Origin: a virus
DNA: 39,414 nt
Strand: one strand, 5' to 3'
Virus record (IMG/VR): IMGVR_UViG_2225789004_000001
Location: 1-39,414 of that record
The number at the start of each line of letters is the position of its first letter. Position 1 is the stretch's first letter. Shown piece by piece: positions 1,122-38,691 of this stretch. Under the pieces are notes generated by a model. It was given only the letters and a program-made list of their open reading frames with translations. It searched no databases and was not told the origin of the DNA. Both the position numbers and the translations under genes were made by a program.

Positions 1122-1577
1122 TCACCCCACTCTTTCAATGAATTTTTCTAACCATGCGATGATATGTTCCGGAACTTCGATTTTCAACCAAGCCGAACCA
1201 TATTTGTAACCTTCATCGTCATAAATGCCAAACTCTTCTAAAATTTTACAAGTGGTTTCATAATCAAAAGAGCATTTGGATTGGAGTTCAAGATATTTCA
1301 TGAGTTCAGTCTGCTTCACCGTTCCGGCTCTCAAATTGTTGAGATGGTAGTTATCCCAGACATACATCAGAAAAGCGAAATCTCGTTTACTGAATTTTTG
1401 GTAAATTCTCAATTCGCCGGATTCATATTTCTTTTTCAAATAATCTTGAATCTGACCGATATGATTTCCACCGATGTCGCCGCAGATGCTTAACACGCCA
1501 TCTTTGGTGTATTCAATTTCAATTGTTACAAGACCTTCGTCTTTGATTACTCCAAATTTTATTGCTTTTTTAATCAT
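1122..1577 (-). CDS. Hypothetical protein, first gene behind promoter module at 1584..1650
   Basis: ORF track. GGAGTGAT SD 6 nt upstream of the ATG. Confidence 0.75.
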   Translation of the reverse strand: MIKKAIKFGVIKDEGLVTIEIEYTKDGVLSICGDIGGNHIGQIQDYLKKKYESGELRIYQKFSKRDFAFLMYVWDNYHLNNLRAGTVKQTELMKYLELQSKCSFDYETTCKILEEFGIYDDEGYKYGSAWLKIEVPEHIIAWLEKFIERVG

Positions 1578-1583
1578 TTCAAA

Positions 1584-1650
1584 TCACTCCAATTAGGTAA
1601 TTTACCTACAATATAGTAAAGTATCTATAAGTATATATAGGTTTTGGTTA
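1584..1650 (-). promoter_or_regulatory. Conserved promoter module (CCAAAA, TATATATA, N13, TACTATATTGTAG, hairpin, GGAGTGAT)
   Basis: On the minus strand: TATATATA 1632..1639, TACTATATTGTAG 1606..1618, palindrome TAGGTAATTTACCTA 1594..1608, SD 1584..1590. Confidence 0.65.
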
Positions 1651-2098: not shown

Positions 2099-4144
2099 TC
2101 ACCGCCTGCCGGGTTTCAACTGAAACGACCATGTTGTTTTCTTGGAAGTTGAATTTGAAACATACCGTTTTTCGAATCCCTGTAAATCCATTTCAACGGA
2201 AAAGTTACCGCTTGATAACGGTTTATATCCATTTTCGTCACACCAAATAGAATACTCATATTTGTAAAAATGAGCGGCTGTAACAGACTTTAAATATTCG
2301 TTTAATTCAGCCTTTTCGCCATAACCGTTGAGGAACTCTACGACCGGATTTGACAAGATTTCATAGGCTTTTTTCATCTCAATCACACTCTCGGAAATAG
2401 TGAATCCGTATTTTTCCATTCGCCAATATCCTTTTATTGCCTGCTGTATTAGATATTCCAACGATTCGTGCGTTGTCAGTTTATCTATCATTTTATCATC
2501 TTCATCAGTCGAGGTGAATTTTGCAATAAACGGTATCAAGATGATTCTTCGAAGAAAACCATCCGAAGTATCGTCTGTTCTTGGCGGACGGTTTCCGGCG
2601 AAGATGAATTTTGCACAATTTGAAAATTTAATCGGTGTTTGGAATTTTATATCCACTGTCACCGAATCGCCAGTGACGAGTTTCTTAAAAAGGTTTGCAC
2701 CGGACACATATCGCATATTTATGTCACTGCCGATATTGATTAATTTACCGATTAATTTATGAGTGAAAAATTGCTTATTCAAATCTTCAAAATCCAATGA
2801 TTCAATATTATTACCGCCGAAAGCTTTCGTCACTGCTTTTAAGAAAGTGGATTTGCCGTTTGCACCAGAGCCGATTAAGAAAAACGATTTTCCTTTTTCA
2901 TTTCTTGGATTCAGGCAGAAACCAATCATTTCATAGAGAAGTTTTTCTAAATCTTCGTTGTTGCAAGTGATGTCTCTCATAAATTCGTCAAATACCGGCG
3001 ATTTCGCATTTGGATTGAAATCAATCGGTAATTTAAAGAAACAAATCCTGTCCGGTGAATAATCATACACCTTTCCGGTGCGGTTACTCCAAACGCAATT
3101 GCTAAAACCAATAAATTCATACAACTCCGCATCTTGAATATCAAAATTTGGAATCGCTTCTTCGGTTGTTAAGATGAAATCAAAAATTTCATTTATTTCA
3201 TTGCGTTTGAGATTGAAAATCGTATCCATGATTAAAGATTTTAAATTATCATTACGATAAATGCCATTTTGATACGCATACGGAACTCCGTTTATCTTTT
3301 TTATGTGTAAAACATTAATCAGACATTCTGCCGCATCTTGGTGCTTAAAACCATAATGCGGTTCGACAAACTATAACTTATCCGCTTTACCGCCAGTCGC
3401 AACCGTTGCCTTTTCAAATGTCTTATCCCGAAGAATCGCATCCATTTCCTTTTTCGATAATTTCTCTTCAAAAATCATTCCATTGATGATTCGACAAACT
3501 GTTTCAACATCATCTCGATTCATCAACTTTTGAAGTCCAAGAGCAAACTCAGAAAGCGTATGATTCCGGCTTCCTTGCTTCATTTTGAAAATGGATTCTC
3601 GTTTTTTGAAATAATAGAAGAAAAACGGAAGTGGGGACAATTCATCAAACGAATAAATTTCACCAAGAAAATTGCGGTCAATGGTATCCAGTCGAATCGG
3701 CTCATAGTCCGGATTTTTGCCTTGTTCACCGCCGAGTTTATATTCACATTCCAAACCTAACGCACAAATATGTCCTTGCGGTATTTTTTTTGGAATATTT
3801 CCTCTTGGGTTCTCAATCAAATCAGGATTCTTAAAATAGATGTGGTATCCTTTTTCAGTTTGAACGACATTATATTTCAAATCAATTTCGAACATTTCTT
3901 TTTCGACAATTAATTTCAAAAGACTGACTGCGAATTTACCTTCTTCTTCGTTATCGAAATCAAGAACAACAATGCCGTTTCTAATCTCTCCGGCAATGAA
4001 GTTTTCAGTTTCATCAACATTATAAAGCAACGGTGCTGAACGTGGTTGAAGCGGCACTTTCTTTTGCTCTGCATGCCATGCTTTCGCACTTAATTTGAAA
4101 AAACCATTATAAAGAGATTGAATTTTTGGATTTTTTAAGTCCAT
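2099..4144 (-). CDS. Prim-Pol primase fused to D5/P4-type helicase, with one in-frame TAG at 3371..3373
   Basis: ORFs 3371..4153 and 2099..3229 are in the same frame (924 nt apart). The 47 codons between them have no stop. N-terminal part has VVLDFDNEEEG and GYHIYF (Prim-Pol-like). C-terminal part has Walker A GSGANGKST. ATG 4144 is preceded by GAGTGATAAAA. Confidence 0.7.
3371..3373 (-). other. In-frame TAG inside the primase-helicase
   Basis: Context ...ADKL-TAG-FVEPHYGFKHQDAAECLINVLHIKKINGVPYAYQNGIYRND... The frame stays open into the helicase domain. Confidence 0.75.
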
Positions 4145-5812: not shown

Positions 5813-5840
5813 ATTTTTTCACTCCAAGTTGATTTAAGTA

Positions 5841-5877
5841 ATTTATTAAAACCGGAAATTGGATTTCAACTTCCGGT
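5841..5877 (-). terminator. Intrinsic terminator-like hairpin
   Basis: accggaa (5851..5857) and ttccggt (5871..5877), followed on the minus strand by TTTAATAAAT. Confidence 0.5.
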
Positions 5878-5892
5878 CATAACTCTGATTGA

Positions 5893-6906
5893 TTATTTAT
5901 TTCCTAAATATCCGCCTCTCATTGCGGCAGACCCTTCGACTTCACCGGACATATAGACTGCACCAAGATTTGCACCTCTAATTCTTGACTGAACAGTTTT
6001 CATTCCTTTCAACATTTCGTCAAACTCTTCGTTTACTTTCGGGGGGGTAATGAGTTGAAGAGCAACGCAATTTTGATTCAAAACTTTTTCCACTCCGGCA
6101 ACGAATCCCAAAGCGAACGAGTTGTAAACATTTCTTCCATGTCCGTGTTCTTTTTGGTATTTCACTCTTTCTTTTTCCGCCAATTTGTTTCCCAAAGCGA
6201 ACAATTTTGTGAAAACCTTTCTTGCCACCAACGCATCAGTTTCAAATCCAAAAAATGCGATTGAATTTCCGATAGAATATTGTTTACAACGATAATTCTT
6301 CGCCAACACATTCGCCAAAGCAACTTTCCATTCTCTTCCCTCGCCGCAGTCATAGATTGCGGAGTAGCAGGTCTCAACTTCGCCTTCCAGATTCAAATCT
6401 TCTGTTTTCAATCCATGTTTCGCAAGAAGATTCTGTGCCATTTGAGCGGCGAGTTGAGCTTCTTCTTCGAATTTTGTTTTGGCTGATAATTCGAGACATT
6501 TGTTAATCTTTTCAATCAAATTAACTCTTTCTTCATCAACTTCGAGACATTGATTGATATGAAGGTCTTTGACGTAAAACTTAAACATTATTGTTTCAAA
6601 TTTTAATCCTTTAATTGTGACTTTTCTGGTTGAGAACTCCACATTGTCGTATAACTTGTCTTTTTGTTTCATCAACCGTTTAAAATCTTCCGGCACTATA
6701 AATGTTAATGTTGCGATTGCATCGTTCCAGTCATCCGGCTTAAAGAAGTTTAATTTTACTGTTCCATGTTTCAGGATTTCTTCTAAATTCGGACATCCGG
6801 CTGTTACGAACATCTTATTAATTCGGACTTCCATTTCCTTTACTTCTTCCGGCGTAAGTGTCGGTTGGTTAAGGGAATTTTTGATTTCAGTCATATTTTT
6901 AATCAC
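5893..6906 (-). CDS. Hypothetical protein with DUF2786-like helical segment
   Basis: ORF track. INKCLELSAKTKFEEEAQLAAQMAQNLLAKHGL resembles the DUF2786 signature. GGAGTGAT SD upstream. Confidence 0.7.
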   Translation of the reverse strand: MIKNMTEIKNSLNQPTLTPEEVKEMEVRINKMFVTAGCPNLEEILKHGTVKLNFFKPDDWNDAIATLTFIVPEDFKRLMKQKDKLYDNVEFSTRKVTIKGLKFETIMFKFYVKDLHINQCLEVDEERVNLIEKINKCLELSAKTKFEEEAQLAAQMAQNLLAKHGLKTEDLNLEGEVETCYSAIYDCGEGREWKVALANVLAKNYRCKQYSIGNSIAFFGFETDALVARKVFTKLFALGNKLAEKERVKYQKEHGHGRNVYNSFALGFVAGVEKVLNQNCVALQLITPPKVNEEFDEMLKGMKTVQSRIRGANLGAVYMSGEVEGSAAMRGGYLGNK

Positions 6907-6973
6907 TCCAATTATTAGTAGTAATTTTACTACAATTACATAAAGTCACTATAAGTATATATAGGTTTTGGTT
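6903..6973 (-). promoter_or_regulatory. Conserved promoter module, leftward arm
   Basis: TATATATA 6956..6963, hairpin GTAGTAA/TTACTAC 6918..6933, SD rc at 6903..6909. Shares 25 bp (6949..6973) with the 50-bp repeat. Confidence 0.6.
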
Positions 6974-7087
6974 GGATGTTTATGTTGTCTGCTATCGTTA
7001 TATTATATTATGTGTTGATTATGGGTTATTACTTTTTTATGTTTTCTTATTACTTTTTATGATTTTTTTTCAGTATTATATTTTTAA

Positions 7088-7123
7088 TTGTAAATTTACA
7101 ATTTTTTACAATATTTTTACAAT
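7088..7123. repeat. Iteron cluster 1: 14-bp palindrome TTGTAAATTTACAA plus three direct TTTACAAT
   Basis: TTTACAAT at 7095, 7105 and 7116, spaced 10 to 11 bp. Inverted ATTGTAAA at 7088. Confidence 0.8.
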
Positions 7124-7217
7124 AATCACCCCTTTTTTCGCCGATTTTTTCCAGTCGGAATAGAGGTGTGAGATTTATAATAATTGCTCAATATAAGTTT
7201 ATATAGGAAAATAAAAT

Positions 7218-7235
7218 TTTACAATTTTTTACAAT
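7218..7235. repeat. Iteron cluster 2: two direct TTTACAAT
   Basis: Copies at 7218..7225 and 7228..7235. Confidence 0.8.
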
Positions 7236-7367
7236 AAAGAAAATCGTTATCTATATACTATATTATTGTATTATTTTATTATTTTATAAGATATTAATTA
7301 AATATAGAAAAGTCCCCCCTAAATGATATTATAGATTTTTCTCATATTCAGACGCTGTTTCAAAAAT

Positions 7368-7383
7368 TTTACAATTTTACAAT
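7368..7383. repeat. Iteron cluster 3: two direct TTTACAAT
   Basis: Copies at 7368..7375 and 7376..7383. Confidence 0.8.
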
Positions 7384-7486
7384 ACAGTATCCTGCTATCG
7401 AATCAACCACCTACCTATTTTATTTTGCTATATAAACCCTCAAAAAACCTTCAACCGACCTCGATTGCCAGTGGAACTTTTTTCGG

Positions 7487-7673
7487 TATCAGGAGAACCG
7501 AAGTTGAAACCGTATGACCCCGACCCCGTAAAAAATTTCTTCATTTCCGGCAACTGCTGTCGAATCCGAAAAAACGGCATTTTTCGTCAAAAATCCACCG
7601 GTAATAAGAGACGGTGTAAAAATAAATCAACTTTACTTGATTTACAGATTTCGCCTTTCTGGTTCTCCTGATA
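7487..7673 (+). other. GC-rich structured element closed by a perfect 13-bp inverted repeat (candidate ncRNA or MITE-like insert)
   Basis: tatcaggagaacc (7487..7499) pairs with ggttctcctgata (7661..7673). Internal hairpins: cgaaaaa/tttttcg 7567..7586, caccg/cggtg 7596..7616, aaatcaa/ttgattt about 7623..7643. Strand is not established. Confidence 0.35.
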
Positions 7674-7717
7674 GTGATTCTTTTCTTGGATGTGAGAGTA
7701 AAAAGAAGAATTTTCAA

Positions 7718-7782
7718 CCAATAAGTATATATAGGAATAAAGACTATACTATATTGTAGGTAAATTACCTAATTGGAGTGAT
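7718..7782 (+). promoter_or_regulatory. Conserved promoter module, rightward arm
   Basis: CCAATA, TATATATA 7726..7733, 13 nt, TACTATATTGTAG 7747..7759, palindrome TAGGTAAATTACCTA 7757..7771, GGAGTGAT 7775..7782. Confidence 0.65.
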
Positions 7783-9097: not shown

Positions 9098-9514
9098 ATG
9101 TGGCAAATTGCTGACATGATTCTGGCACGGAAGATAAGCGAATCTTTGCGGATGAAATCCGATTTCCGGATAAACGGAGTTTCGGTTATTTTCATTTCCG
9201 CAGATAAAATTTTTCCATATCATCTTGATTTTTTCTTGGAAGATGGCGACACTATCAATCTTGATTTCTTGGTTAATCGCACTGTCGATATAGATTTCGA
9301 TTATGAATACTATGATGAGAGAGAAGAATTTATTTTCGAGATTATTGAAATGAGTTCCGGCTTGAATCAGTTCGATAAAGAGAAAAGGAATAGGATGTTA
9401 TTGAAAGAAGAATATTTATCGCCGCCGGAACTAAAAAGATTGCTCGCAATAGAAGGATTTTATGAATATCAAAAATTCAGAGTAAAAAACGGACAAAGAG
9501 TATATATAGGATGA
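9098..9514 (+). CDS. Hypothetical protein
   Basis: ORF track. Its 3-prime end overlaps the next promoter module. Confidence 0.65.
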   Translation: MWQIADMILARKISESLRMKSDFRINGVSVIFISADKIFPYHLDFFLEDGDTINLDFLVNRTVDIDFDYEYYDEREEFIFEIIEMSSGLNQFDKEKRNRMLLKEEYLSPPELKRLLAIEGFYEYQKFRVKNGQRVYIG

Positions 9515-9557
9515 AATACTATACTATATTGTAGGTAAATTACCTAATTGGAGTGAT
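9494..9557 (+). promoter_or_regulatory. Conserved promoter module
   Basis: TATATATA 9501..9508, 13 nt, TACTATATTGTAG 9522..9534, TAGGTAAATTACCTA hairpin, GGAGTGAT 9550..9557. Confidence 0.65.
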
Positions 9558-9562: not shown

Positions 9563-9751
9563 ATGATTTATAGAGTTTGTTATAGCAGTATTCATTATGA
9601 TGCCGAAGAAGATGATGAATTTTCCGCATTTGATTCGGATTATTTCTCAACCAGAGAAAAAGCAGAAGAGTTTGCCAAGAAGGTCAGCGGCGATGTCGAT
9701 GAAATCACCGAAGAACATTTTGAAAGATTGAGAGTTCCGTTGAGAGGTTAA
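9563..9751 (+). CDS. Acidic hypothetical protein
   Basis: ORF track. Confidence 0.7.
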   Translation: MIYRVCYSSIHYDAEEDDEFSAFDSDYFSTREKAEEFAKKVSGDVDEITEEHFERLRVPLRG

Positions 9752-10144: not shown

Positions 10145-10446
10145 TGCCAGTTAATCTTCCATCCAATTCTCACGCATGGGGCGTTGTCAAAGGTTTCTCT
10201 ATCGGCGGCTGTTGGGTAAGTCCAAGTGGTGAAGTTGTCTGGACGGCATTTTCAAAACATGAAGATGTCGCACAATGTATCGTCCAGAAGAACTGGGTGC
10301 AGATAAGCGGACAGGATTTAACTCAATCAATCAGAGTTTATTCCAAAACCTCTGAAAGATTGACATCGCAACAACGCAGAGTTCTTGTGGAATTTGCGAT
10401 TGATGCAAAAGTTAAGACAGAAAATATTTCATTTGAATCATCTTAA
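10144..10446 (+). CDS. Hypothetical protein
   Basis: ORF track 10141..10446. ATG at 10144. Confidence 0.6.
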   Translation: MPVNLPSNSHAWGVVKGFSIGGCWVSPSGEVVWTAFSKHEDVAQCIVQKNWVQISGQDLTQSIRVYSKTSERLTSQQRRVLVEFAIDAKVKTENISFESS

Positions 10447-10515
10447 CCAATAGTTATTTATAGGAACGGATACTTTACTATATTGTAGTTTCAAAATACT
10501 ACAATTTGGAGTGAT
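10446..10515 (+). promoter_or_regulatory. Conserved promoter module (TATTTATA variant)
   Basis: AACCAATA, TATTTATA 10455..10462, 13 nt, TACTATATTGTAG 10476..10488, hairpin GTAGT/ACTAC, GGAGTGAT 10508..10515. Confidence 0.6.
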
Positions 10516-10519: not shown

Positions 10520-10645
10520 ATGCAGTATAATAAAAACATGACAGCTTGCGAAATCGAAAGTCAGTTGGAAAGAATCCAGAAGGAATATTTTGTTTCAGAA
10601 TCCGAAGCACGAGATATGTTCATTAATATGCGAATGGATGTGTAA
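10520..10645 (+). CDS. 41-aa protein
   Basis: Hand translation: MQYNKNMTACEIESQLERIQKEYFVSESEARDMFINMRMDV. Sits behind the promoter module and SD. Confidence 0.5.
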   Translation: MQYNKNMTACEIESQLERIQKEYFVSESEARDMFINMRMDV

Positions 10646-11252: not shown

Positions 11253-11261
11253 TCACGCTTT

Positions 11262-11298
11262 CCGGCGACCCCATATCGCCGGATTCATCTTTCTTTTT
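11262..11298 (+). terminator. Hairpin with T-rich tail
   Basis: ccggcga (11262..11268) and tcgccgg (11276..11282). Confidence 0.45.
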
Positions 11299-11523: not shown

Positions 11524-11869
11524 TGTTAGATGTCCGCAGTCTTGCCTTCATCGAATGAGTTCCGGTCTTTGCGGTAAGGAATCCATTGAATTAGGCGTGG
11601 ATGAGACGATTTGTAAAAGTTTCCAACCTGATGTCAATATCAGAGATTTCGAAAGCGTTCAAACCGATTCACGACTTCAAATTCATGCCAAGAGCAAGAG
11701 AAGACCGGAATATACCGTTTGTGGAATAAAATTGTATCCGGTGACATCATTGCGGAAGCAACGAACCGAAACTGAAAGTTTTCAGAAATATCAAAATTCC
11801 GGCAAGGCGTGTAAAACCTGCCAGATTCGAATTAGACAAATGAGTAGTGAGAAAAAGAAATGGAGTTGA
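11513..11869 (+). CDS. Cys-rich basic protein
   Basis: Track ORF 11468..11869. ATG 11513 overlaps the end of the upstream gene. CPQSC...C...C and CKTC motifs. Confidence 0.5.
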   Translation: MPTNVRCPQSCLHRMSSGLCGKESIELGVDETICKSFQPDVNIRDFESVQTDSRLQIHAKSKRRPEYTVCGIKLYPVTSLRKQRTETESFQKYQNSGKACKTCQIRIRQMSSEKKKWS

Positions 11870-12114: not shown

Positions 12115-12141
12115 TTTTTTTATTTTTTTTTTCAAAACATT

Positions 12142-12211
12142 CCAAAGATTATATATAGGAAGACATCCCTATATAGTATTGTAGTAAAATGATACTACAA
12201 CTTGGAGTGAT
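12142..12211 (+). promoter_or_regulatory. Conserved promoter module (last one before the long rightward operon)
   Basis: CCAAAGAT, TATATATA 12150..12157, 13 nt, ATATAGTATTGTAG, hairpin GTAGTA/TACTAC, GGAGTGAT 12204..12211. Preceded by a long T-run. Confidence 0.6.
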
Positions 12212-12215: not shown

Positions 12216-12713
12216 ATGAAAACTTTGAACCAACTTTTGATTGAAAAGAAAATCGCATCTGAAAAATACAGTAATGCAATTCGCACGATGGATTGGATGG
12301 GTGAAGATAAAGACTTTGTTGAATCTTATCGAATTGCTTGTATCAATAAAGATGCCGAAGTTGCTCAAAAGAGACAAGAGAATAGAGATTGTGACAAATA
12401 TCTCGAAGAAGAGAGAAAACACCAAACCACTTTTAAAAATCTTCCGGAAGAATTTAAAAACATTGTTCCGAAAATTATGGAAATGGCAGAAACAGAAAAT
12501 AGATTCTGGGGTGAATGTTATGCGATTTCGTTTTATAATAAAGTCGCAAAATACACCAAAGGAAATGAGGAGATTAAAAGATTTTACTTCACCGGAGTTG
12601 AAGTTCTTGGTTTGGTAATCGGAAATGGCGGTGCTTTCGAAGTCAGAACAATTTTCGCAGGCGGTTGGAATGTTCAGAGATTTCATTACAGGGTTATCGT
12701 AACCCCTGTTTAA
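12216..12713 (+). CDS. Hypothetical protein
   Basis: Track ORF 12189..12713. ATG 12216 follows the SD. Confidence 0.7.
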   Translation: MKTLNQLLIEKKIASEKYSNAIRTMDWMGEDKDFVESYRIACINKDAEVAQKRQENRDCDKYLEEERKHQTTFKNLPEEFKNIVPKIMEMAETENRFWGECYAISFYNKVAKYTKGNEEIKRFYFTGVEVLGLVIGNGGAFEVRTIFAGGWNVQRFHYRVIVTPV

Positions 12714-12776
12714 TTTTTTTAAAGGAATAATCCAAACTTTTATCTCTTTTGAATTCATCATCTTTCTTGGTGATTT

Positions 12777-13295: not shown

Positions 13296-13805
13296 ATGGC
13301 ATCTTCTCAATTACCAAAAACTCTGGAATTTTGGCTCTCGGATAAAGGGCTTCTCATTTTGAATAGTTTCGGTAGAGCCGGAATGACTGTTAAAGAAGTG
13401 TGTGAAAAAATCTCTATTTCTCAAAAAATATTTAAAGCATGGATGGAAACACACCATTCGATTCGAAATGCGTTTAATCTGGAAGAACGGAATTATATTG
13501 ATATTGTTGAAGGCAAACTTTTAAAAGCCGTAACCAATGAAATTGAAACCTACAACGAAAAAAGCGTTGTTGAAAGAATTGTTTATGATTCCGAAGGTAA
13601 ACAAGTTGGTAAGGTTGTCACAAAAAAGACAGTTGAAAAGCCGATTAAAATCGAATCTGAATTAATGAAATTTTATCTCACCAATCGTGCGGCAGATAAA
13701 TGGGCGTATTCACCTGAACCAATTAAGAAACGAAATGTTTCAAAATTAGAGGAAATTATGCAAGAATGGGTATCGGAAAGCAATAAAGAGAGTGATGAAG
13801 AATGA
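13296..13805 (+). CDS. terS: Terminase small subunit-like HTH protein
   Basis: N-terminal HTH (GMTVKEVCEKISISQKIFKAWM), then ...IVEGKLLKAV... and ...FYLTNRAADKW... typical of TerS proteins. Positioned upstream of terL. Confidence 0.5.
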   Translation: MASSQLPKTLEFWLSDKGLLILNSFGRAGMTVKEVCEKISISQKIFKAWMETHHSIRNAFNLEERNYIDIVEGKLLKAVTNEIETYNEKSVVERIVYDSEGKQVGKVVTKKTVEKPIKIESELMKFYLTNRAADKWAYSPEPIKKRNVSKLEEIMQEWVSESNKESDEE

Positions 13806-14521
13806 AAGTTTTAGTTACCGGAACAACACACGGAATTGGACATTCAATTGCAAGGTTATTCTTGGAAGAAGGACATTTGGTTGTCGGGTTGGATATTGAA
13901 CCTGAAATCGACCCTTTAAGTGCCGAGTTTGCCGATTGGAAATTTTATCAATGTGATGTCGGAAAGCCGGAAGAATTGCCGGACGAATCTGATTTTGAAA
14001 TCATCGTAAATAACGCCGCAACTACGGATGAAAAATCCGCAATTCAGACCAATCTTCTTGGTTATGTGAATGTTGGTGAAAAATACGCTTTCCAAGAAAG
14101 AATTAAATCAGTTGTAAACATTTGTTCAATATCATCAGTTAGTGGAATTGAATTGCCGAATTATTGCATTTCAAAAGGCGGTAATTTAGCATATTCACAA
14201 AACTTATCTCTTCGATTAGCACCAAGAGCAACAGTAAATGCGATTATCTGCGGCGGTGTGATTACTAAAATAAATCAAGAGATTTTAGATGACGAGAAAC
14301 TTTACCAAATGTGTAAAGACGAAACCCTTCTTGGAAAATGGTGTCAGCCAAGAGAAGTGGCAGATTTAGTTTATTATTTGACAGTTGGAAATAAATCTAT
14401 CACTGGACAAACTATAACTATTGATAACGGTGAATGTGCCAAATTCAATTTTATTGGAACTTCCGAAGTTAAAAATGAATTTTATAAATCACAGTTTAAA
14501 AGGAGTGAATTATATGAGTAA
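13802..14521 (+). CDS. Classical short-chain dehydrogenase/reductase (SDR)
   Basis: TGTTHGIGHSIA (TGxxxGxG), NNAA, catalytic Ser region CSISSVSG, YCISK (YxxxK). Confidence 0.85.
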   Translation: MKVLVTGTTHGIGHSIARLFLEEGHLVVGLDIEPEIDPLSAEFADWKFYQCDVGKPEELPDESDFEIIVNNAATTDEKSAIQTNLLGYVNVGEKYAFQERIKSVVNICSISSVSGIELPNYCISKGGNLAYSQNLSLRLAPRATVNAIICGGVITKINQEILDDEKLYQMCKDETLLGKWCQPREVADLVYYLTVGNKSITGQTITIDNGECAKFNFIGTSEVKNEFYKSQFKRSELYE

Positions 14522-15080
14522 AACAAACGAAATTTCTGTTCTCGATATTGATATTGAACAAATTAAAAAATATGAAAACAACCCAAGAGAAAATGCGGAA
14601 TCAATTCCTTATGTTGTAAACTCAATTAAGGAATATGGGTTTAAAAATCCAATTGTTTTGGATTCCAACATGGTTATTATCGCCGGACATACAAGATTTG
14701 AAGCCGCAAAGATTCTTGAAATGAAAACAGTTCCGTGTATAATTGCGGAAGATTTGACGGAAGAGCAGGCACGAGAGTTCCGATTAATTGACAATAAAAC
14801 TGCGGAATTGTCTTATTGGAATTTTGATAAACTTTTAGAAGAGATTTCGCATTTGGAGTGCGATTTAACGCAATATGGATTCAATGACATTCAAGATAGT
14901 ATTCGAGATTTAGATGATGTTGATGAAATTACAGAAGATAATTATAAGAATCCGGAACAAGCGAAAAAGAAATGTCCGGCTTGCGGTCATGTTGATTTCG
15001 TTGTAAATTTCAGAATTGTTAAAAATGAAGCAGTATCATCAACACCAACTTTCGAAGAACCTGACGAGGAATTTGAGTGA
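14514..15080 (+). CDS. ParB N-terminal (ParB/Srx) domain protein with C-terminal Zn ribbon, DpdB-like
   Basis: YENNPRENAESIPYVVNSIKEYGFKNPIVL..IIAGHTRFEAAKILEMKTVPCII. CPACGH near the C-terminus. ATG 14514 follows AAAGGAGTGAAT. Confidence 0.75.
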   Translation: MSKTNEISVLDIDIEQIKKYENNPRENAESIPYVVNSIKEYGFKNPIVLDSNMVIIAGHTRFEAAKILEMKTVPCIIAEDLTEEQAREFRLIDNKTAELSYWNFDKLLEEISHLECDLTQYGFNDIQDSIRDLDDVDEITEDNYKNPEQAKKKCPACGHVDFVVNFRIVKNEAVSSTPTFEEPDEEFE

Positions 15081-15838
15081 AGATTTTCTTATCAGCAGTC
15101 GAAGGGTCTGAAAAACATATTATCGACAGATGTATTAGAGAAGGAATTAATCTCAAATACATTTTAATTTCTTATTTTCACCTTCGCAAAAACGAAAAAA
15201 TATTCAACAAATTAAGATTAATTTGCGATGAAATGCTCATCGACAGCGGGGCACACTCTTTTCAAAAAGGTTTTAAAGTTGATTTTTATGAGTTTACCAA
15301 AGAATATGCTCAATGGATTATCGAAAATGATTGCGACCAAATGACTGGTTATTTTGAGATGGATATTGACAATTTAATCGGTTATGATGAGGTTAAAAAA
15401 CTTCGTGCAATTCTCGAAGCCGCACACCCGACAAAAATAATTCCGGTATGGCACGCAACGAGAGGTGTGGAAGAGTTCGAAAAAATGTGTGAAGAATACG
15501 CAGGTCGAATCGTTGCCATTTCCGCAATTAGAAATAAAGACATTTCAGACGACCAGTATATGATGTTTTTGAAAACAGCAAAAAAATATGGATGTAAAGT
15601 TCATGCTCTTGGAATGACACGAACAAATTTATTAAATAAAGTTCCTTTTGATTATACAGATTCATCAACATGGAAACAAACTGGTAATTATGGCGGTTTC
15701 GCCAAATTTACAGGATGTAAAATGAAAGTCGTTAGTGCGGCAGGTGGTCTGAAAACTTATTATTTAGATTTTCATAATTTAAAAGAATTTATGAAAATGC
15801 AACAGTATTTCGAAGCAAAATATAAACATTTAGAATAA
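15077..15838 (+). CDS. dpdA: DpdA-like DNA transglycosylase (TGT superfamily)
   Basis: LIDSGAHSFQKG resembles the TGT DSGGFQ catalytic strand. FDYTDSSTW resembles the second conserved Asp strand. ILISYFHL is a TIM-barrel strand. Neighbours are ParB-like and YhhQ genes. Confidence 0.6.
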   Translation: MKIFLSAVEGSEKHIIDRCIREGINLKYILISYFHLRKNEKIFNKLRLICDEMLIDSGAHSFQKGFKVDFYEFTKEYAQWIIENDCDQMTGYFEMDIDNLIGYDEVKKLRAILEAAHPTKIIPVWHATRGVEEFEKMCEEYAGRIVAISAIRNKDISDDQYMMFLKTAKKYGCKVHALGMTRTNLLNKVPFDYTDSSTWKQTGNYGGFAKFTGCKMKVVSAAGGLKTYYLDFHNLKEFMKMQQYFEAKYKHLE

Positions 15839-15844
15839 AAGGAT

Positions 15845-16540
15845 ATGATTGAAATGATACAGAATGAATTGCTGTTTTTTGTCACCATGTTGGTGAACTT
15901 CTCCGGCATCTTGATTGCTTATAAATTGTTTGGTAAACAAGGTCTTTTCGTATGGATGGGGCTTGCGATTGTTATAACTAACATCGAAGTCCTCAAATGC
16001 GTGGATATGTTCGGATGGGCTGTCACGTTAGGAAATGTGATATACGGCACAACTTTCTTGGTTACGGACATCCTTAACGAGAAATATGGTGTAAAAAAAG
16101 CACGGATGGCGGTTATGGTCGGATTCTTTGCGATGATTGTTTTCACGGTTATCATGCAGGTAAATCTTCTCTTCGAAGTGAATGCCGCCGACTTTTCCAA
16201 AGATGCTTTTGAAACAATCTTCGCCGTTCTGCCAAGAATTGCAATCGCTTCTATTATTGCTTATCTTGTCGCAAATCTTATTGATGTTCAAGTTTATCAT
16301 TTCATCAAAAAGGCATTGCCGGACGATAAGTGGTTATGGGTGCGAAACAACGGCTCATCCCTCTGCGGACAAGCAATCGACACTGTTATTTTTGGAATTA
16401 TCGCATTTATTGGACTTTACGAATTTCCGATAATTTTCCAACTCACAATAACAAGTTATATCTTAAAATTTGTGATTACTCTTTGCGAAACACCGTTTTT
16501 ATACATTGCGAAACGAATAAAGCCGATTTACGATGAGTGA
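15845..16540 (+). CDS. yhhQ: YhhQ/DUF165 (VUT) family queuosine-precursor transporter
   Basis: Polytopic membrane protein. GNVIYGTTFLVTDILNEKYGVKKAR and SSLCGQAIDTVIF match YhhQ signatures. Confidence 0.7.
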   Translation: MIEMIQNELLFFVTMLVNFSGILIAYKLFGKQGLFVWMGLAIVITNIEVLKCVDMFGWAVTLGNVIYGTTFLVTDILNEKYGVKKARMAVMVGFFAMIVFTVIMQVNLLFEVNAADFSKDAFETIFAVLPRIAIASIIAYLVANLIDVQVYHFIKKALPDDKWLWVRNNGSSLCGQAIDTVIFGIIAFIGLYEFPIIFQLTITSYILKFVITLCETPFLYIAKRIKPIYDE

Positions 16541-17867
16541 AATATTTAATCCAAAGCAAAAGCGTTCTTTTAGACGTTTTATTCAAAAAGCGTTTAAAAG
16601 AATTAACTTTTTTGAAGGGTCGGTATCATCTGGAAAGACCTACATCACATTGATTCTTTGGTCTCTCTGGGTGATGTCACGACCGCCGCAATCAGTCCAT
16701 CTTATGTTCGGAAGAACTATCACTTCTTTGGAACGTAATTGTCTGCTTCTTTTGACGGAACTGTTCGGCGAAGAAAATGTTCAATACTCTGTTTCTTCGA
16801 AAAGGATGCGACTATTTGGCAGGCTTGTCTGGTTAGAAGGTGCGGATAACGAAAGAGCCAGAGCGAAAATTCAAGGTTTAACGATTGATTCAGTGTATGG
16901 TGATGAACTCCCACTCGTTCCGGAAACCTTTTTTAACATGGTTCTTTCTCGTATGAGGATTCTCGGCTCGAAAGGATTTTTTACCGGAAACCCCGATGAC
17001 CCGACAAATTACGTTAAGAAGAATTGGATTGACCGCATTGAAGAGGACGATTTAGATATGATGGTTGAACATTATCATATCTGCGATAATTCGATGTTTC
17101 TTCCGGAAGGTTATATTGAAAATTTATAGAAAGAATACACTGGCGTGTTCTTCAAACGTTACATAGAAGGTCTTTGGGTTGTTGCCGAAGGTGCAGTTTA
17201 TCAATTGTTTGGCGATAATTCAGACGATTATATTATTGATTTGAAAGATTACAATTTTGATAATTTAATGTATATCAACATTGGCATAGATGTTGGTGAA
17301 ACAGAATCCGGAACTGCGTTCACAGCAACCGGCTTTGAGAAAAATTATGCCGGCATTGTTGCTCTGGATGCCGACTGGATTAAAGGAAATGCCTTAACCG
17401 ACCCCACCGCACTTTACGAAGCGTTTCATGCTTTCTTGGCACGGCAACAATATGACGGTGTGAAGGTAAAAGCGATTTATTTCGATAAGGCTCAACAATT
17501 TTTAAAACGTGGTTTAGTAACTTATCTTTCTTCCAAAGGAATCAACATCCAAGTTTACGATAGTTTAAAATATCCTATCAACGATAGAATTATGGTTACA
17601 AACGCATTATTTTCAACATATAAATTAAAAATAAGCACACGATGTCCGCATTTGATAAAAGCGTTTAAAGAAGCAGTTTGGAAAGCGAATACAACGCCGA
17701 TGGAACGACTTGATGACTTCACTTCTGACATTGATAGTTTAGATTCGTTTGAGTATTCAATCGAAGATGGAATGTATAACATCGTCACCTTTTTACAGAA
17801 ACCAAAAATCAGATTTCCAAAAGAAAATTTAATGATAAAGTTACAAACGCAGAGGTTATATGAATGA
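16533..17867 (+). CDS. terL: Terminase large subunit, with one in-frame TAG at 17127..17129
   Basis: ORFs 16533..17129 (Walker A GSVSSGKT, Walker B VYGDE) and 17145..17867 (nuclease half, IGIDVGETESG) are in the same frame (612 nt apart). Codons 17130..17144 (KEYTG) are open. Confidence 0.85.
17127..17129 (+). other. In-frame TAG inside terL
   Basis: ...PEGYIENL-TAG-KEYTGVFFKRYIEGLWVVAEGAVY... Confidence 0.8.
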
Positions 17868-21977: not shown

Positions 21978-22229
21978 ATGTCTGTTGATGGCAAACCCGA
22001 CCAAGTTTCCGCAATTGTCAATGGTGAAATTCCGAAGATTACTGACATTTCAGAAATCGAAGCCGGAACACTTTATTACGCAATTGTGAAAAAGCAGAAC
22101 CAAGACATCCAGAGAACGCTCGGTCTTGTTTACGGAAACGTAATCACCGACTATGCCGGAAATGGATACGAATTGGTTTTCGCTTTCACTCCGTTCTACG
22201 CACCCAACGACATCGTTTCCACACTTTAA
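21978..22229 (+). CDS. Small head-associated protein
   Basis: ORF track. ATG immediately after the capsid TAA. Confidence 0.5.
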   Translation: MSVDGKPDQVSAIVNGEIPKITDISEIEAGTLYYAIVKKQNQDIQRTLGLVYGNVITDYAGNGYELVFAFTPFYAPNDIVSTL

Positions 22230-22230
22230 G

Positions 22231-22260
22231 CAGGGTTTTTCAACCCTGTTCCTTATTTTT
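22231..22260 (+). terminator. Intrinsic terminator or attenuator after the capsid genes
   Basis: cagggtt (22231..22237) and aaccctg (22242..22248), then a T-rich tail. Confidence 0.6.
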
Positions 22261-23410: not shown

Positions 23411-23938
23411 ATGTTAGAATTTTTATCACAATTTTTATTTAAATCGGACACGACACACCCGCTTTATCTTATCATAGCATCCATTTATGGTTTTATAACT
23501 GGTGCTATCGGTTTCGCTTTCGGCAATTGGTATGGTTTATTGGCTATTCTTGGCTGTTTGATTACCCTTGACACTATTCTTGGAATCATTGCCGCCGCCA
23601 AAGAAGGTCAGGTTGTAAACAGCAAGATTTTTGCGAAAATGTTTTTTTTGCACAAATTCATCCCATACAGTGCGGCAATCGGATTTTCGGTCTGTATTGA
23701 TTCATTAATTAAGATTTTCTTAACCAATGGAATTGATTTGATACCGCTTTTCGATTGGTTGCCTTATGCCGATGTTATTCTTGGAAACATTTTAACCGTT
23801 ATCTTAATGACGTGGCTTATTGTTAAAGAATCTTGGTCGATTTTGGAAAACCTGACTATTATTGATTCAAAAATCGTTCCGTCACCGATTAAGAAAGTGA
23901 TTGCGAAATTAATGCAAATTGTGAACCCGAATGAGTGA
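23411..23938 (+). CDS. Holin, TcdE/Phage_holin_4_1-like
   Basis: ITLDTILGIIAAAKEGQVVNSKIF and IVKESWSILENLTIIDSKIVPSPIKK resemble TcdE ISFDTLLGCLSAIKSRKFNS and ILYESVSILKNL..GLPVP. Multiple TM helices. ATG 23411 follows GAGGT. Confidence 0.65.
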   Translation: MLEFLSQFLFKSDTTHPLYLIIASIYGFITGAIGFAFGNWYGLLAILGCLITLDTILGIIAAAKEGQVVNSKIFAKMFFLHKFIPYSAAIGFSVCIDSLIKIFLTNGIDLIPLFDWLPYADVILGNILTVILMTWLIVKESWSILENLTIIDSKIVPSPIKKVIAKLMQIVNPNE

Positions 23939-25280: not shown

Positions 25281-25922
25281 ATGGATTTATTAAAATCGGA
25301 TTTACATCCGATTTTTACTTATAAGAAATGGGATTTCACATTAAATCTTTCTTTGGAACGTGTTCTTAATGCCATTTCTGCACTTGATGAAGAAGCGGAC
25401 ATAAAACAACTCGACCGCTTCTATCTCGTTTTGGATAATTTACTTGATGTCAATTCTAATGATTTTGATACTTTTGAGTATCTTGAAGAAATGACTTGTT
25501 TTGAACAATAGGAAGTTTTCACCATATTGCTGAAAACCTTCGTATTTCCGCCGGAATCTGCGATAAAACGCTCAACTCCATCTTTCGATATTAACTATGA
25601 TTTTGAACTCGTTTATACAGCGATTTTGAAGGCTTTTAATATTGACATTATCGACCAAAAAGAAGTGCTTTCTTGGAACAAATTCAGAGCCTTATTAAAA
25701 GATGTGAATGAAGATTCGATGTTAAATCGTGTTATTGAAATTCGAGAAATGCCTTTACCGCCTGCTACCAAGAAAAATATGGAACGGCGTGCTGAAATCA
25801 GGCGTGCGAAAAAGAAATATGACCTTCCGCACCTGAAAAAAGCAAGAAAGGAAAAAGAACGAGAGACATTGAGAAAGATGGCGGAAATGCAAAAGAAGGC
25901 GGAAGAAAATGGCAACACCTGA
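25281..25922 (+). CDS. Tail assembly chaperone-like protein, with one in-frame TAG at 25509..25511
   Basis: ORFs 25281..25511 and 25527..25922 are in the same frame (246 nt apart). Codons 25512..25526 are open. The basic C-terminal tail overlaps the tape measure start. Confidence 0.5.
25509..25511 (+). other. In-frame TAG in the chaperone gene
   Basis: ...EEMTCFEQ-TAG-EVFTILLKTFVFPPES... Confidence 0.65.
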
Positions 25923-28646: not shown

Positions 28647-30445
28647 TACCGCAATCATCGCAATATTATGTCAATGTTGATAAACCGATAAGAGAACCGT
28701 TCCACCCGACAGTTTTACTTTCATCTTCTGACCCGACATTGATTGCAAAAACACAGTTCGATTCTTCATCATCAGAACTTGTTTTTTCAAAACGTAACCA
28801 ACTTTTTAACCAAATTGTTAATCCTTCTTGGGGATTGCAAACTTTCGAACCAAATAGAACCATTGCAGATGGCAGTTTTGTCGTTTTTGATGATAATACC
28901 GCAGGTGAATTTGGATGGTGGTCGGAAGCAAGATGTGATGAGAATGGAGTTTTTGAAACACCGCAAATTATCAAACTAAACTACACGGAAAATTTAAATT
29001 TCATTGAGTTCAGTATCTTTTTCGATTCTTTTGGTAAAGAATGGTCTGATGATTTTGAAATTTTCTTTTATTCCCAATCCGGTGCAGTTATTCAAAGTTA
29101 TCATATTACCGATTGTGATTCTCCGATTTATCTGATTGAAAATGAATTAAATTTCGTCAGAAGTATGGAAATCAGAATCAATAAATGGTCTGTCGGACAC
29201 CGATTCGCAAAGATTTCAGAATTACTTTCAGGATTCGTTATTTCTTTCACCGATGACGAAATATTTGGAATTTCATTCACTGAAAATTTATCGCTTTTCC
29301 AAGAAGAAATCATCTCGTCAGAATTGTTAATTACAGTTGAAAATTTCAACCAACAGTTCAACATTAATAATCCGCAAGGTGTAGCGAAAAAATTGAATTT
29401 GAGACAAGTTTTCACTGCCGCAATTTCTTTGGAACATGAGTCTATTCCTCTTGGTCTAATGTATCTCATGGAACAACAAAATAACGACCGCAACTTCATT
29501 ACGTTTGTTTGTCGTTCGGTTTTTGATTTTAGCGAAGATGAATATATTCCAGAATCGTGGGAAACTTGTTCTGCATATTCATTATTTGAAAAATTATTCC
29601 AAAAAATTGGAATAAATGAATACGATATTCCTGAAAGTTTGAAAAATATTCAAGTAAATCAGTATGTCGAAAAAATGTCAATCAGACAAGCAATTCAACA
29701 ACTCGCAAATTCTGTTCGTTGTGTTGTTTATGTAAACAGAACCGGAAGTGTAACTGTCGATACCATCAATTCGTTATTTTCGCATACCGGACAATCTATC
29801 ACTTTAAATCAGAACACAACCGAAGAACCACCGAGAGTTGAAAAGTTAAAAACTAATGATTCAGCAACGGTGAATATTTATCAATATTCCAAAGATGATG
29901 AAATTGGAAATACGGAACTTGTAAAGGATTTTAAAGTTTTGGTTGATTCACCAACCCCAGTTTCGTATATTATTTCATACAAAACTATCGCTGATTCTGT
30001 AACCGCAGAAGTTACTGGCGCATCTGTTAGCGGCAATATTCTCTATTATGCAGATAGATGTGAAATTATGCTTTTCGGTCAAGGTGAAGCAGTTGTAAAT
30101 ATTTCAGGCACTCCTGTTTTACAAAAAATCGGAAAAGTTAATATAAAATCAGATTTATTTTATTTGAATCCGATTAAAGAGGATTATCTGATTGAAAATC
30201 AATTTATCGCATCCACTTCGGAAGGACGAATACTCGCAAGTGCATTTGTTGAATTTTCACAATTTAGATTGCGACATGAAGTTTACGAACGTGGCAGACC
30301 GGATTTGGAAGTTGGAGATATGATTAATGTCGAAAATGAGTTTGGACTTTTAACCAATGGAATCATTTTTGAACAAAATATCGAATTTAACCAGAATGGA
30401 TTTTTAGAAGGAAAAATGATTATCAAAGCAAAAGGTGAAAATTAA
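28643..30445 (+). CDS. Baseplate or tail-tip structural protein
   Basis: 600 aa, positioned after the tape measure gene. Confidence 0.55.
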   Translation: MIPQSSQYYVNVDKPIREPFHPTVLLSSSDPTLIAKTQFDSSSSELVFSKRNQLFNQIVNPSWGLQTFEPNRTIADGSFVVFDDNTAGEFGWWSEARCDENGVFETPQIIKLNYTENLNFIEFSIFFDSFGKEWSDDFEIFFYSQSGAVIQSYHITDCDSPIYLIENELNFVRSMEIRINKWSVGHRFAKISELLSGFVISFTDDEIFGISFTENLSLFQEEIISSELLITVENFNQQFNINNPQGVAKKLNLRQVFTAAISLEHESIPLGLMYLMEQQNNDRNFITFVCRSVFDFSEDEYIPESWETCSAYSLFEKLFQKIGINEYDIPESLKNIQVNQYVEKMSIRQAIQQLANSVRCVVYVNRTGSVTVDTINSLFSHTGQSITLNQNTTEEPPRVEKLKTNDSATVNIYQYSKDDEIGNTELVKDFKVLVDSPTPVSYIISYKTIADSVTAEVTGASVSGNILYYADRCEIMLFGQGEAVVNISGTPVLQKIGKVNIKSDLFYLNPIKEDYLIENQFIASTSEGRILASAFVEFSQFRLRHEVYERGRPDLEVGDMINVENEFGLLTNGIIFEQNIEFNQNGFLEGKMIIKAKGEN

Positions 30446-31875
30446 TGCAACCTTCAAGTGATATTATTTATATAACTTTTAACGAAGAGAAAATAGGATA
30501 CAATGGAACAGTCTATCCTATTTTAAAATCTTCTTTATCTACAATAACACCCTTTTTGGAATTTTCAGATAAAGATAAAAATCCATTGAAATTTTATTTA
30601 GATTCTCAATCGGAAACAACTTGGTTTTATATTATTCGATTTGATGCTAAAATAGGAATAAATAAAATTTATATTCACCCATCCAATATCAATAATAGTA
30701 GCATTGATGTTTTTGATGATTATTACGATTTAAGTAAAGGATTAGATGGAAGATTACAAGTATCAGACCCTTCAACAGGTGGTAATGAAGCGGCTTATCT
30801 TGCTTTGGTTTGGCGAAACAGTTTAACAGGAAGCACAATAGCTAACAGAGTAATCCAAGAAGTAGATGGATTACGATATGTAGGTAACTTCTCTCATTTT
30901 ATCAGACCTATATCATCTGTTAAAAACAAAGATTCTTTCGGTGATACATGGGAAGCAAAGGTTGAACATAATAACATTTATTCGAGATGTATATTTGGTT
31001 TTTCTATGCCAAGCCTTAATACAAATTCATATTCAGAAGGTATTAAAAAAGGAAATAACAATAGTTTATCAACAGGGAATAATATTTATTATAACGAATC
31101 AAATTCATCATCATTTAAAACAGATACTGATGCTGAACATGTAAAAACTGATATTTTTGGATTCAATACATTTGAAAATGGCGGTAACAGTTATTTTATT
31201 TCAGAAGATTATTCGAGTAAAATCGAAAGTGGATTTAAGCAAAGAAATCCGAATAGTGGATTACAAACTAACATTAGACATGAATTGAAAATTTGGTCTT
31301 ACGGCGTTAATTTGTCAGATAATTATAAATTATCAACCAAATGGTTTTGGATTCGAAAAAGAACAAATCCGATTCCGAATACCTTTATAATCACTATAAA
31401 TGACGATTAGGAATTTATACCAATTCCTCAATATGCATGGTTTTCTACATCTCCTATTAATGATTTTGATTTTAATAGAATTTCAAATAATATCGCAGTG
31501 TGTTGGACGATTCTTAATAAGATGGGTTATGTGAATCAATTTAGAGAAATGAGATGTGATTTCGATTTTTTTGAACATTTAGACGACCATATTCGTTTAT
31601 CCAAAGAATGGAAGAACATGAGAGAGAATTTGTGGGATTTGTATAAAGTATTTCCTTTGGTACAAATGTTTCCGGAAGCACCGATTTATGTTCAGTTTGT
31701 TGAACCGTCACCAAGAAATCCGGTGGAAGCATTAACGGCAAGTTTATTAAATTCAATGGAAATTAACTTGGCAAACTTATATTACTATTTAACGATATTA
31801 GAATTTGAAAGATTACCGATATTAATGACTGAAAACAGAATGAGACAAAGAATAGTGAGGAAACCGAATGACTGA
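30445..31875 (+). CDS. Tail fibre or receptor-binding protein, with one in-frame TAG at 31408..31410
   Basis: ORFs 30445..31410 and 31498..31875 are in the same frame (1053 nt apart). All 29 codons between them are open, and there is no SD-like motif before the downstream fragment. Confidence 0.5.
31408..31410 (+). other. In-frame TAG in the fibre gene
   Basis: ...IITINDD-TAG-EFIPIPQYAWFSTSPINDFDFNRISNNIAVCWTIL... Confidence 0.6.
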
Positions 31876-38343: not shown

Positions 38344-38390
38344 ATTTTCACTCCAAAAAAATTAAAAAATTTAGAAGATTGTTCCATCTC

Positions 38391-38619: not shown

Positions 38620-38691
38620 TCACTCCAAATTAGGATTTAATCCTACAATATAGTAAAGTATCTATAAGTATATATAGGTTTTGGTTAAACC
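38620..38691 (-). promoter_or_regulatory. Conserved promoter module
   Basis: TATATATA 38669..38676. Hairpin TAGGATT-T-AATCCTA 38631..38645 has compensatory changes relative to TAGGTAA-A-TTACCTA. SD rc at 38620..38626. Confidence 0.65.
38642..38691. repeat. 50-bp perfect repeat, copy B (identical to 1605..1654)
   Basis: Identical string read at both loci. Confidence 0.85.

Follow-up and report, generated by a model that had tools for sequence, protein, structure and literature searches.

The DNA examined here (the window) is a tailed-virus genome of 39,414 nt (IMG/VR record IMGVR_UViG_2225789004_000001, positions 1 to 39,414), in which seven cassettes of about 70 nt, named modules W1 to W7, precede early genes. 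Self-BLAST revealed an exact 33-nt overlap between its ends (1-33 and 39382-39414), so that the contig is a circular assembly and the window a complete genome of about 39.38 kb. The leftward arm encodes a DUF2786 protein, PrimPol plus a D5-type helicase, HNH endonucleases, an ERF recombinase and a family-B DNA polymerase (PolB). The rightward arm starts with small unknown genes, a small terminase and a cluster of SDR, ParB-like, DpdA-TGT-like and YhhQ genes, and continues with the large terminase, an SPP1-type portal, minor capsid protein 2, the major capsid, a holin-like protein, the tape measure and tail proteins. Neither an integrase nor a recognisable endolysin was found in this genome. 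A previous inspection of the letters alone (hereafter the sequence-only reading) had proposed the modules as promoters of archaeal geometry, i.e. with a B recognition element (BRE), a TATA box and an initiator (INR). A pattern scan recovered all seven, as listed below with the genes that each would drive.

1584..1650, minus strand: W1, with a perfect CAAAA-CC-TATATATA-N21-TG; would drive 1122-1577 (minus) and the genes downstream
6903..6973, minus strand: W2, perfect consensus match (see below) with the variant core TATGTAATTGTAG; would act as first promoter for the replication operon that runs leftward (DUF2786 gene 5893-6894, primase-helicase and others)
7718..7782, plus strand: W3, the copy flagged by the sequence-only reading; CCAATA BRE-like box 7718-7723, TATA box TATATATA 7726-7733, 13-nt spacer ending in ACTA, AT-rich TACTATA 7747-7753, invariant TTG 7754-7756 (G7756 lies 22 nt past TATA), hairpin 7757-7771, Shine-Dalgarno GGAGTGAT 7775-7782; ATG at 7788
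9494..9557, plus strand: W4, with BRE and TATA box within the 3' end of the upstream gene 9098-9514; would drive 9563-9751
10446..10515, plus strand: W5, with the TATTTATA TATA variant and the hairpin ATTGTAGT/ACTACAAT; would drive the 41-codon open reading frame (ORF) 10520-10645
12142..12211, plus strand: W6, with spacing longer by one, and a T7-A-T10 run upstream at 12115-12132; would drive 12216-12713
38620..38691, minus strand: W7, perfect consensus match; would drive 38391-38615, ERF 37648-38343 and onward to PolB 34520-36283

Every module lies directly 5' of the first gene of an operon and in the same orientation, with 3-7 nt between its end and the ATG, and the early, replication and recombination operons all begin with one. 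W2 and W3 diverge from a central non-coding region, W6 is the last module before the structural genes, and the 21-kb structural region contains none. Besides the 33-nt end overlap, modules were the only repeated DNA that self-BLAST detected in the window (74-94% identity over 40-90 nt). The regular expression TATWTATA-N18-23-TTGTAG matched the seven module sites and nowhere else in the window. Likewise, the 13-mer TACTATATTGTAG, with up to two mismatches allowed, gave seven matches against 0.48 expected; the five exact ones were all within modules, and two with two mismatches (7256, plus; 7377, minus) fell in the central non-coding region, outside the modules. Existence, copy number and placement of the cassettes are direct observations. 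Two paralogous zinc-finger/HNH endonuclease genes (1656-2093 and 38685-39074, both minus) each end just upstream of a module, W1 and W7 respectively, and these two modules share 92% identity over 83 nt. The gene upstream of W5, and likewise that upstream of W7, has its stop codon within the conserved TTAACC.

From its 5' end, a module is composed of (A)ACC-AAWR, 2 nt, the TATA box TATWTATA, 13 nt ending in MCTW, seven variable AT-rich nt and an invariant ATTG, followed by a hairpin of 5-9 bp, (T)TGGAGTGAT, 3-7 nt and ATG. The sequence-only reading had described the upstream half in somewhat stricter terms. Its core TACTATATTGTAG was exact in five of the seven copies, W2 displaying TATGTAATTGTAG and W6 TATAGTATTGTAG; its fixed 13-nt spacing held in six, W6 being one base longer, and the G of ATTG accordingly lies 22 nt past TATA in all copies except W6 (23 nt). 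The CCAA(A/T)A-like box read CCAAAA in three copies and CCAATA in two; the others displayed ACAAAG and CCAAAG, once each. The TATA box was TATATATA in 6/7 window copies (11/14 across the three viruses compared below) and TATTTATA in the remainder. The downstream half, which that description lacked, starts with a hairpin at the ATTG or at most 4 nt from it, continues with TTGGAGTGAT and ends at the start codon. Hairpin stems differ among copies yet stay complementary (TAGGTA/TACCTA, TAGGAT/ATCCTA, GTAGTA/TACTAC, ATTGTAGT/ACTACAAT). Since the hairpins are weak (-4.6 to -8.4 kcal/mol) and whole-leader z-scores against dinucleotide shuffles were only -1 to -2.4, the support for them is comparative rather than thermodynamic.

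Two related uncultivated viruses displayed the same organization, which brought the comparison to 14 copies (seven from the window, five from R1 and two from R2). R1 (L236/L237; sample JGI 3300028601; PolB 60% identical) is syntenic and its five modules follow the same design, CAAAAC-TATATATA-GTATTAAACCCTT-ATTGTAATTGTAG-hairpin-TGGAGTGAT. The more distant R2 (L239; sample ERR14656823; PolB 39% identical) carries two, TATWTATA-CTTCTAACGCCTT-TTAGTATTTG-hairpin-GGATGTGAA, with a poorer BRE match. Over the 14 copies, four features were invariant: a C 7 nt 5' of TATA, the TATA box with the exception of its fourth base (A or T), CT at +11/+12 past TATA, and the G of ATTG 22 nt past TATA (with a 1-nt gap in one copy). 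The hairpin occupied the same place in 13/14 copies with differing stem sequences, and the 7 nt at the position of a would-be -10 box were AT-rich and variable. Among the three viruses, conservation is limited to the replication and recombination genes and does not extend to the small genes adjoining the modules. A search with Pfam and PHROGs recovered no sigma factor, RNA polymerase, TATA-binding protein (TBP) or transcription factor B (TFB) in any ORF; it covered nearly all ORFs of at least 60 aa and the module-proximal small ORFs, and a very divergent factor could escape it. A 587-aa protein suspected to be a transcription polymerase turned out to be the family-B DNA polymerase. A motif that is conserved without a conserved virus-encoded reader argues that host machinery reads the modules.

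Scans of viral, genome and metagenome collections with DNA patterns of the module gave no close relative. The 14-mer and ATTGTAG...TTGGAGTGAT patterns returned chance singletons only, the scan of the genome collection for the module was empty, and one metagenome pattern match was rejected as a module because it lay inside a coding region. Nothing was found by megablast of 25 kb of the window against known phages, and a literature search for TATATATA-type phage promoters brought up nothing relevant. The strict TATA-N13-core pattern occurred in one unrelated IMG/VR phage locus, L117. There, a single module-like sequence (11658-11720; AAAC-TATATATA-GTTTAAAACCCAT-TACTATATTGTAG) is followed by AAGGAGG and ATG; its spacer resembles that of R1, and no proteins were common with the window in the 14.7 kb compared. 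Tetranucleotide similarity clustered the three relatives but selected no host.

The seven modules are very probably host-read promoter-plus-leader cassettes for early genes. Archaeal BRE/TATA promoters are known already, as are repeated promoter cassettes in phages. What is new here is the fusion of a near-consensus archaeal-type promoter to a fixed hairpin and ribosome-binding leader, in seven copies and together with a bacterial-phage proteome, as well as the conservation of such a cassette across a small clade that retains apparently leaky TAG codons (see below).

The Methanosarcina promoter is described as BRE CAAAA, 2 bp, an 8-bp TATA box TTTATATA and a pyrimidine-purine start ~23 bp downstream (PMC11409679). 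In M. jannaschii, the TATA box is TWTATATA, the distance from TATA to start is 23+/-2 nt in 94% of promoters, T is found at -1 and A/G at +1, an AT-rich proximal element is present, and A, C, C are preferred at -40 to -38 (PMC2699501). The methanogen-derived consensus CAAAA-N2-TWTATATA-N21-TG, with at most one mismatch, gave five matches (three perfect, two with one mismatch) against 0.02 by chance. The archaeal BRE/TATA/INR geometry put forward by the sequence-only reading is thus one that fits a consensus published beforehand, and more strongly than that reading knew. In 329 other loci, the BRE-TATA part occurred as singletons only, R1 excepted, with a background of roughly 2 per Mb. In 5/7 window copies A-C-C precedes CAAAA, which is the extended-BRE preference of M. 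jannaschii; CAAAA itself is present in three, the other four displaying CAATA, CAAAG, CAATA and CAAAG. An invariant T-G at 22 nt and a T-A at 24 nt past TATA are candidate start positions, and the variable AT-rich 7-mer occupies the place expected of a proximal element and not that of a specific -10 box. Conservation and consensus fit, like the lack of a virus-encoded sigma factor or polymerase, are plain observations.

Genome-wide, sigma-70 consensus matches were at chance level. No module has a TTGACA-like -35, the position being occupied by TATATA (3/6 matches to TTGACA). Yet the sequence-only reading overstated its case against a sigma-70 reading: TATATA lies 18 bp 5' of a conserved WATTGT with two key -10 bases, and TGn precedes WATTGT in six copies (one in the window, five in R1), with a full TRTG in two. 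The TACTAT register fits five window copies and WATTGT 12/14; none fits all 14. Mapping of transcription starts, proposed by the same reading, would not separate the two domains of life, as a TACTAT or TATACT -10 box (TACTAT plus 7 nt) and TATA plus 23 nt give almost one start.

The sense TAG codons noticed by that reading proved to be real and conserved in relatives. Four in-frame TAG codons are as follows.

3371..3373, minus strand: between the PrimPol domain (3374-4144) and the D5/DUF5906 helicase (2099-3370); TAG at the same site in R1
17127..17129, plus strand: inside the large terminase (16533-17867); TAG at the same site in a third relative, R3 (sample JGI 3300009826; terminase 64% identical)
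25509..25511, plus strand: at the tail-chaperone position just upstream of the tape-measure gene (25281-25922); TAG at the same site in R1
31408..31410, plus strand: in a 478-codon tail protein (30445-31875); aligned residue by residue to a TAG of R2 at 27% protein identity

The R1 tail protein also has an in-frame TAG near the window site, within about 17 codons by coordinates. In the relatives, TAG positions are 2983 and 19637 in L236, 17568 in L239 and about 3184 in L326. All four window codons stand at domain junctions and look like programmed leaky stops that would give short and long products, the tail-chaperone TAG standing in place of the usual frameshift site. Among ORFs of at least 100 aa, stops were TAA (26), TGA (24) and TAG (4), all four TAG being the read-through sites; two short genes (34335-34514 and 38391-38615) end in TAG, which sets true TAG stops at two at most. 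General recoding of TAG was rejected, since TAG as sense adds little coding length and concerns a handful of sites. No tRNA gene was found in the window, R1 or the parts of R2 examined, and no Rfam family in the window.

Recognition of TBP/TFB type in a pyrrolysine-decoding methanogen is the most probable single mechanism, although we hold it tentatively. TFB would contact the C-A-A-A-A box, TBP would bind the 8-bp TATWTATA, and transcription by RNA polymerase would begin 22-24 nt further on, at the invariant T/G or the T/A next to it. With such a start, the base of the hairpin would form the 5' end of the transcript, some 20 nt ahead of GGAGTGAT. The cassette as a whole is very probably a strong core promoter fused to a short leader that comprises a small 5'-proximal hairpin and a consensus ribosome-binding site. 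It is from such features that we infer the start position, the binding proteins and the host. The latter would be an archaeon, most simply a pyrrolysine-decoding methanogen with UAG as an ambiguous stop. Leaky UAG would serve the primase versus the primase-helicase, the terminase, short versus long tail protein, and the tail-chaperone, where it would replace the frameshift. Archaeal machinery is also suggested by the four conserved in-frame TAG codons without a tRNA gene and by the avoidance of TAG stops. The same is suggested by T-runs directly after stop codons and by family scans of the window ORFs, which found no murein hydrolase and no Sipho_tail or Prophage_tail family. A lineage descended from Gram-positive phages, mostly of Bacillota type, would have adapted its cis-signals to a methanogen host. 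That this clade, with its Gram-positive-phage replication and head genes, now infects pyrrolysine-decoding methanogens (Methanosarcinales or Methanomassiliicoccales) by means of consensus BRE/TATA cassettes and leaky UAG stops is possible but should be considered with some doubt.

Promoters, stop-codon behaviour and lysis genes must suit the current host. Such cis-signals have to fit the present host, whereas protein similarity records descent, and the two disagree here. A number of observations weigh against an archaeal host. All recognisable proteins are closest to those of bacterial phages, e.g. the portal (36-40% to Clostridia prophages such as those of Blautia and Monoglobales), the minor capsid protein (36% to Bacillus phages), PolB (37-38% to Staphylococcus, Paenibacillus and Bacillus phages) and the capsid (39% to Streptomyces phages). 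For comparison, psiM2, which is a true methanogen virus, has a portal that reaches no more than 24% identity to those of bacterial phages, and no window protein matches the methanogen viruses psiM2 or MSTV1. The ParB-DpdA-YhhQ module and an HNH gene are common to L241 (44-57% identity), an ordinary temperate phage with a cI-like repressor, a serine recombinase, DnaB, YqaJ and AGGAGG ribosome-binding sites. A PF05105 (TcdE-type) holin-like protein is present, and the depletion of T-runs on the sense strand does not exceed that of A-runs. Past W6, the first gene is followed by a T7 run, and the late region of 21 kb has no evident promoter. The genome is nearly devoid of GGAGG, the Methanosarcina ribosome-binding consensus, and the sigma-70-like register, TATATA-18 bp-WATTGT, exists with its TGn and TRTG extensions. 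For the archaeal host raised by the sequence-only reading, the promoter fit and the conserved TAG speak in favour, and the portal, capsid, PolB and minor-capsid proteins, 36-40% identical to those of Gram-positive phages and prophages (Bacillota and, for the capsid, actinobacteria), speak against. Of the features that looked bacterial to that reading, the holin-like protein (E=2e-16), YhhQ (shared with a temperate phage) and GC-rich hairpins followed by T-tracts were observed.

Taken in aggregate, the readings with a bacterial host and a non-canonical promoter are roughly as probable as the archaeal one. In one of them, unlikely in itself, the primary sigma-A holoenzyme alone would read the cassettes. 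The A-tract would be a proximal UP element, TATATA would stand at -35 with an 18-bp spacer before a WATTGT or TACTAT/TATACT -10, some copies would be helped by a TGn/TRTG extended -10, and transcription would start in or just before the hairpin. This accords with the protein homology and module sharing with Gram-positive phages, with a holin family typical of Bacillota and with the GC-rich hairpins followed by T-tracts in several intergenic gaps. In the aligned core, moreover, A (position 11) and T (position 15) are found in 13/14 copies, as -11A and -7T would be, and the AATTGT/AAATGT copies carry TGT just upstream, two of these being a full TATG (TRTG). Yet no -10 register suits all 14 copies, and with the best one, WATTGT, the start would fall within the loop of the hairpin. 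The conserved complementarity of the stem would then have no explanation, even in the two modules that are not transcribed from upstream. Moreover, TATATA is invariant though it shares only 3/6 positions with TTGACA, and early promoters of Bacillota phages are normally near-consensus, which none is here. Conserved TAG read-through, TAG-stop avoidance and the missing endolysin are likewise left unexplained.

It is also unlikely that, in a bacterial host, the cassettes need an extra, unrecognised factor binding the CAAAA-TATATATA block, such as an alternative sigma factor of the host, or a sigma-like or activator protein that is very divergent and either encoded by the virus or co-injected. The same bacterial ancestry speaks for it, many early ORFs have no detectable family, a bipartite arrangement of conserved blocks with fixed spacing is typical for phage promoters that depend on a sigma factor or an activator, and in R2 a TTCTAACGCC direct repeat flanks the TATA box as a possible protein-binding site. 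All early operons start with a module, however, so there is no obvious module-free gene to supply the factor first; no small early gene is conserved among the three motif-sharing viruses, and the close match to an unrelated published consensus would be a coincidence. Far less probable is that the cassettes are not primarily promoters but mobile or recombinogenic regulatory cassettes, or RNA-processing or translation-initiation modules, with transcription starting elsewhere. The near-identical W1 and W7 do each follow a paralogous HNH endonuclease gene, the half with hairpin and GGAGTGAT is as well conserved as the upstream half, and R1 does not share the rightward early genes located between modules, which is what gene shuffling by cassettes would produce. 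Against this, the most conserved positions lie upstream of the hairpin, W2 and W3 point away from a region devoid of genes, a position that makes sense for promoters alone, and there are no other promoter candidates for the early genes. Recognition by TBP and TFB requires one unusual assumption, i.e. a bacterial-phage stock, mainly of Bacillota type, in a methanogen, by which promoter fit, leaky TAG, stop usage and the missing wall hydrolase would be explained together. A bacterial host keeps ancestry simple but calls for a promoter class not described so far and, in addition, for constitutive read-through of UAG in that host, which to our knowledge is not known for bacteria.

An archaeal host would make this one of the earliest tailed-virus lineages put forward for pyrrolysine-decoding methanogens. 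It would also be one of the few documented examples in which archaeal and bacterial tailed viruses are closely akin, and a cross-domain host shift would have been caught while both ancestries can still be read. Methanogen genetics would gain a short and very strong promoter-plus-leader part from the cassette. With a bacterial host, the cassettes would define a promoter class outside the known sigma-70 rules, and that host would have to put up with constitutive read-through of UAG. Whichever applies, read-through of UAG in an uncultivated host can be tested directly by means of the conserved in-frame TAG codons.

Among known systems, the BRE-TATA-proximal element-Inr promoters of methanogens share with the modules CAAAA, 2 bp, the 8-bp TWTATATA, 22-24 nt to T/G or T/A, an AT-rich stretch before the start and A-C-C upstream of the BRE (PMC11409679, PMC2699501). 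Cellular promoters of methanogens are degenerate, whereas the modules have a perfect TATA box in 11/14 copies; the modules also differ in having a fixed leader attached, in recurring as a cassette and in belonging to a genome whose proteome is bacterial-phage-like. Bacterial sigma-70/sigma-A promoters of extended -10 and UP types also have two conserved blocks 17-18 bp apart, conserved A/T at the -11A/-7T places, TGn/TRTG in some cases and an A-tract at the proximal UP position. The modules differ from them by the lack of a TTGACA-like -35 and of a common -10 register, and their invariant T and G fall on the least conserved positions of real -10 boxes. The promoter-early stem-loop (PeSL) cassettes of T4-type phages are canonical sigma-70 early promoters with a stem-loop before the promoter and no fused ribosome-binding site. 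Like the modules, they are short promoter and stem-loop units repeated in an early plastic region and flanking variable small genes; in the modules, the promoter precedes the hairpin, is not canonical sigma-70 and has a fused ribosome-binding site. The ompA, ermC and aprE leaders display a 5'-terminal stabiliser hairpin followed by an accessible strong ribosome-binding site. The modules similarly have a short hairpin a few nt from the presumed 5' end and then a ribosome-binding site, but their hairpins are weak (in the energy range given above) and the position of the 5' end is inferred. T4 late promoters (TATAAATA) have an 8-bp TATA-like box at -10, no -35, and need gp55, gp33 and gp45. The modules share the 8-bp TATA-like box and the lack of a -35 element; their box is at about -27 instead of -10, and they serve early genes. 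Homologues of gp55, gp33 and gp45 were not found in the window ORFs.

Other features of the genome include the two below.

6974..7717, strand not assigned: central non-coding region of ~750 bp between the divergent W2 and W3, with several TTTACAAT repeats and a GC-richer stretch
23411-23938, plus strand: PF05105 (TcdE-type) holin-like membrane protein, located among head-completion genes and not beside a lysin

The first of these is probably a replication origin or a regulatory region. In R1, the equivalent region (L237 920-2315) displays ATAAGAATATAAGAAT and TTGTAAATTTAAATTAAAA iteron-like repeats. The TTTACAAT repeats were called as sigma-70 boxes by a scanner, which was rejected as they correspond to the iteron-like repeats of R1. 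The reverse complement of TTTACAAT, ATTGTAAA, resembles the ATTGTAG of the module. As for the holin-like protein, only six relatives were found among 1.8 billion representative proteins, apparently all from the clade of the window, with no phage match; the protein failed as a host clue.

Upstream of the large terminase, 13802-16540 encodes a short-chain dehydrogenase, a ParB-like nuclease, a DpdA/TGT-like protein (phrog_887) and a YhhQ/Vut_1 preQ0 transporter. This SDR-ParB-DpdA-YhhQ cluster suggests 7-deazaguanine modification of the virus DNA; ParB, DpdA and YhhQ are common to the window, L326 and L241. The best cellular relatives of YhhQ were metagenome-assembled genomes (MAGs) of Gastranaerophilales and Eubacteriales, at only 52-56%. 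They were rejected as a path to the host, their loci showing canonical TTGACA/TATACT promoters, AGGAG sites and no module patterns; stop-codon counts in these loci were too small to use. A locus of a 'Methanosarcinales' MAG (L309) was also discarded as a comparator, since it looks leaderless, unlike the window.

Ribosome-binding sites of the window are GGAGTGAT or GGTGAT, not GGAGG. On both strands, GGAGG occurred once against 9.6 expected and GGAGC not at all against 11.5, while GGAGT was found at twice expectation; in the relatives GGAGG is rare too and GGAGC is not depleted. Restriction avoidance or an unusual anti-Shine-Dalgarno sequence could account for this scarcity. Signals resembling both styles of terminator are present. 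T-runs directly follow stop codons at 12115-12132, 12714-12720, 36497-36520 (minus) and 38351-38372 (minus), with no convincing upstream hairpin except for a weak stem before 12115. GC-rich hairpins followed by T-tracts are located at 5825-5860 (minus), 11261-11283 (plus) and 22229-22250 (plus). Finally, in L240 and L241, unrelated temperate phages with YhhQ, a different short motif, GNTTCAAATAGTAAA, was observed ~10-15 nt 5' of the AGGAGG sites of many genes, possibly as the -10 region of a promoter or as a site of RNA processing.

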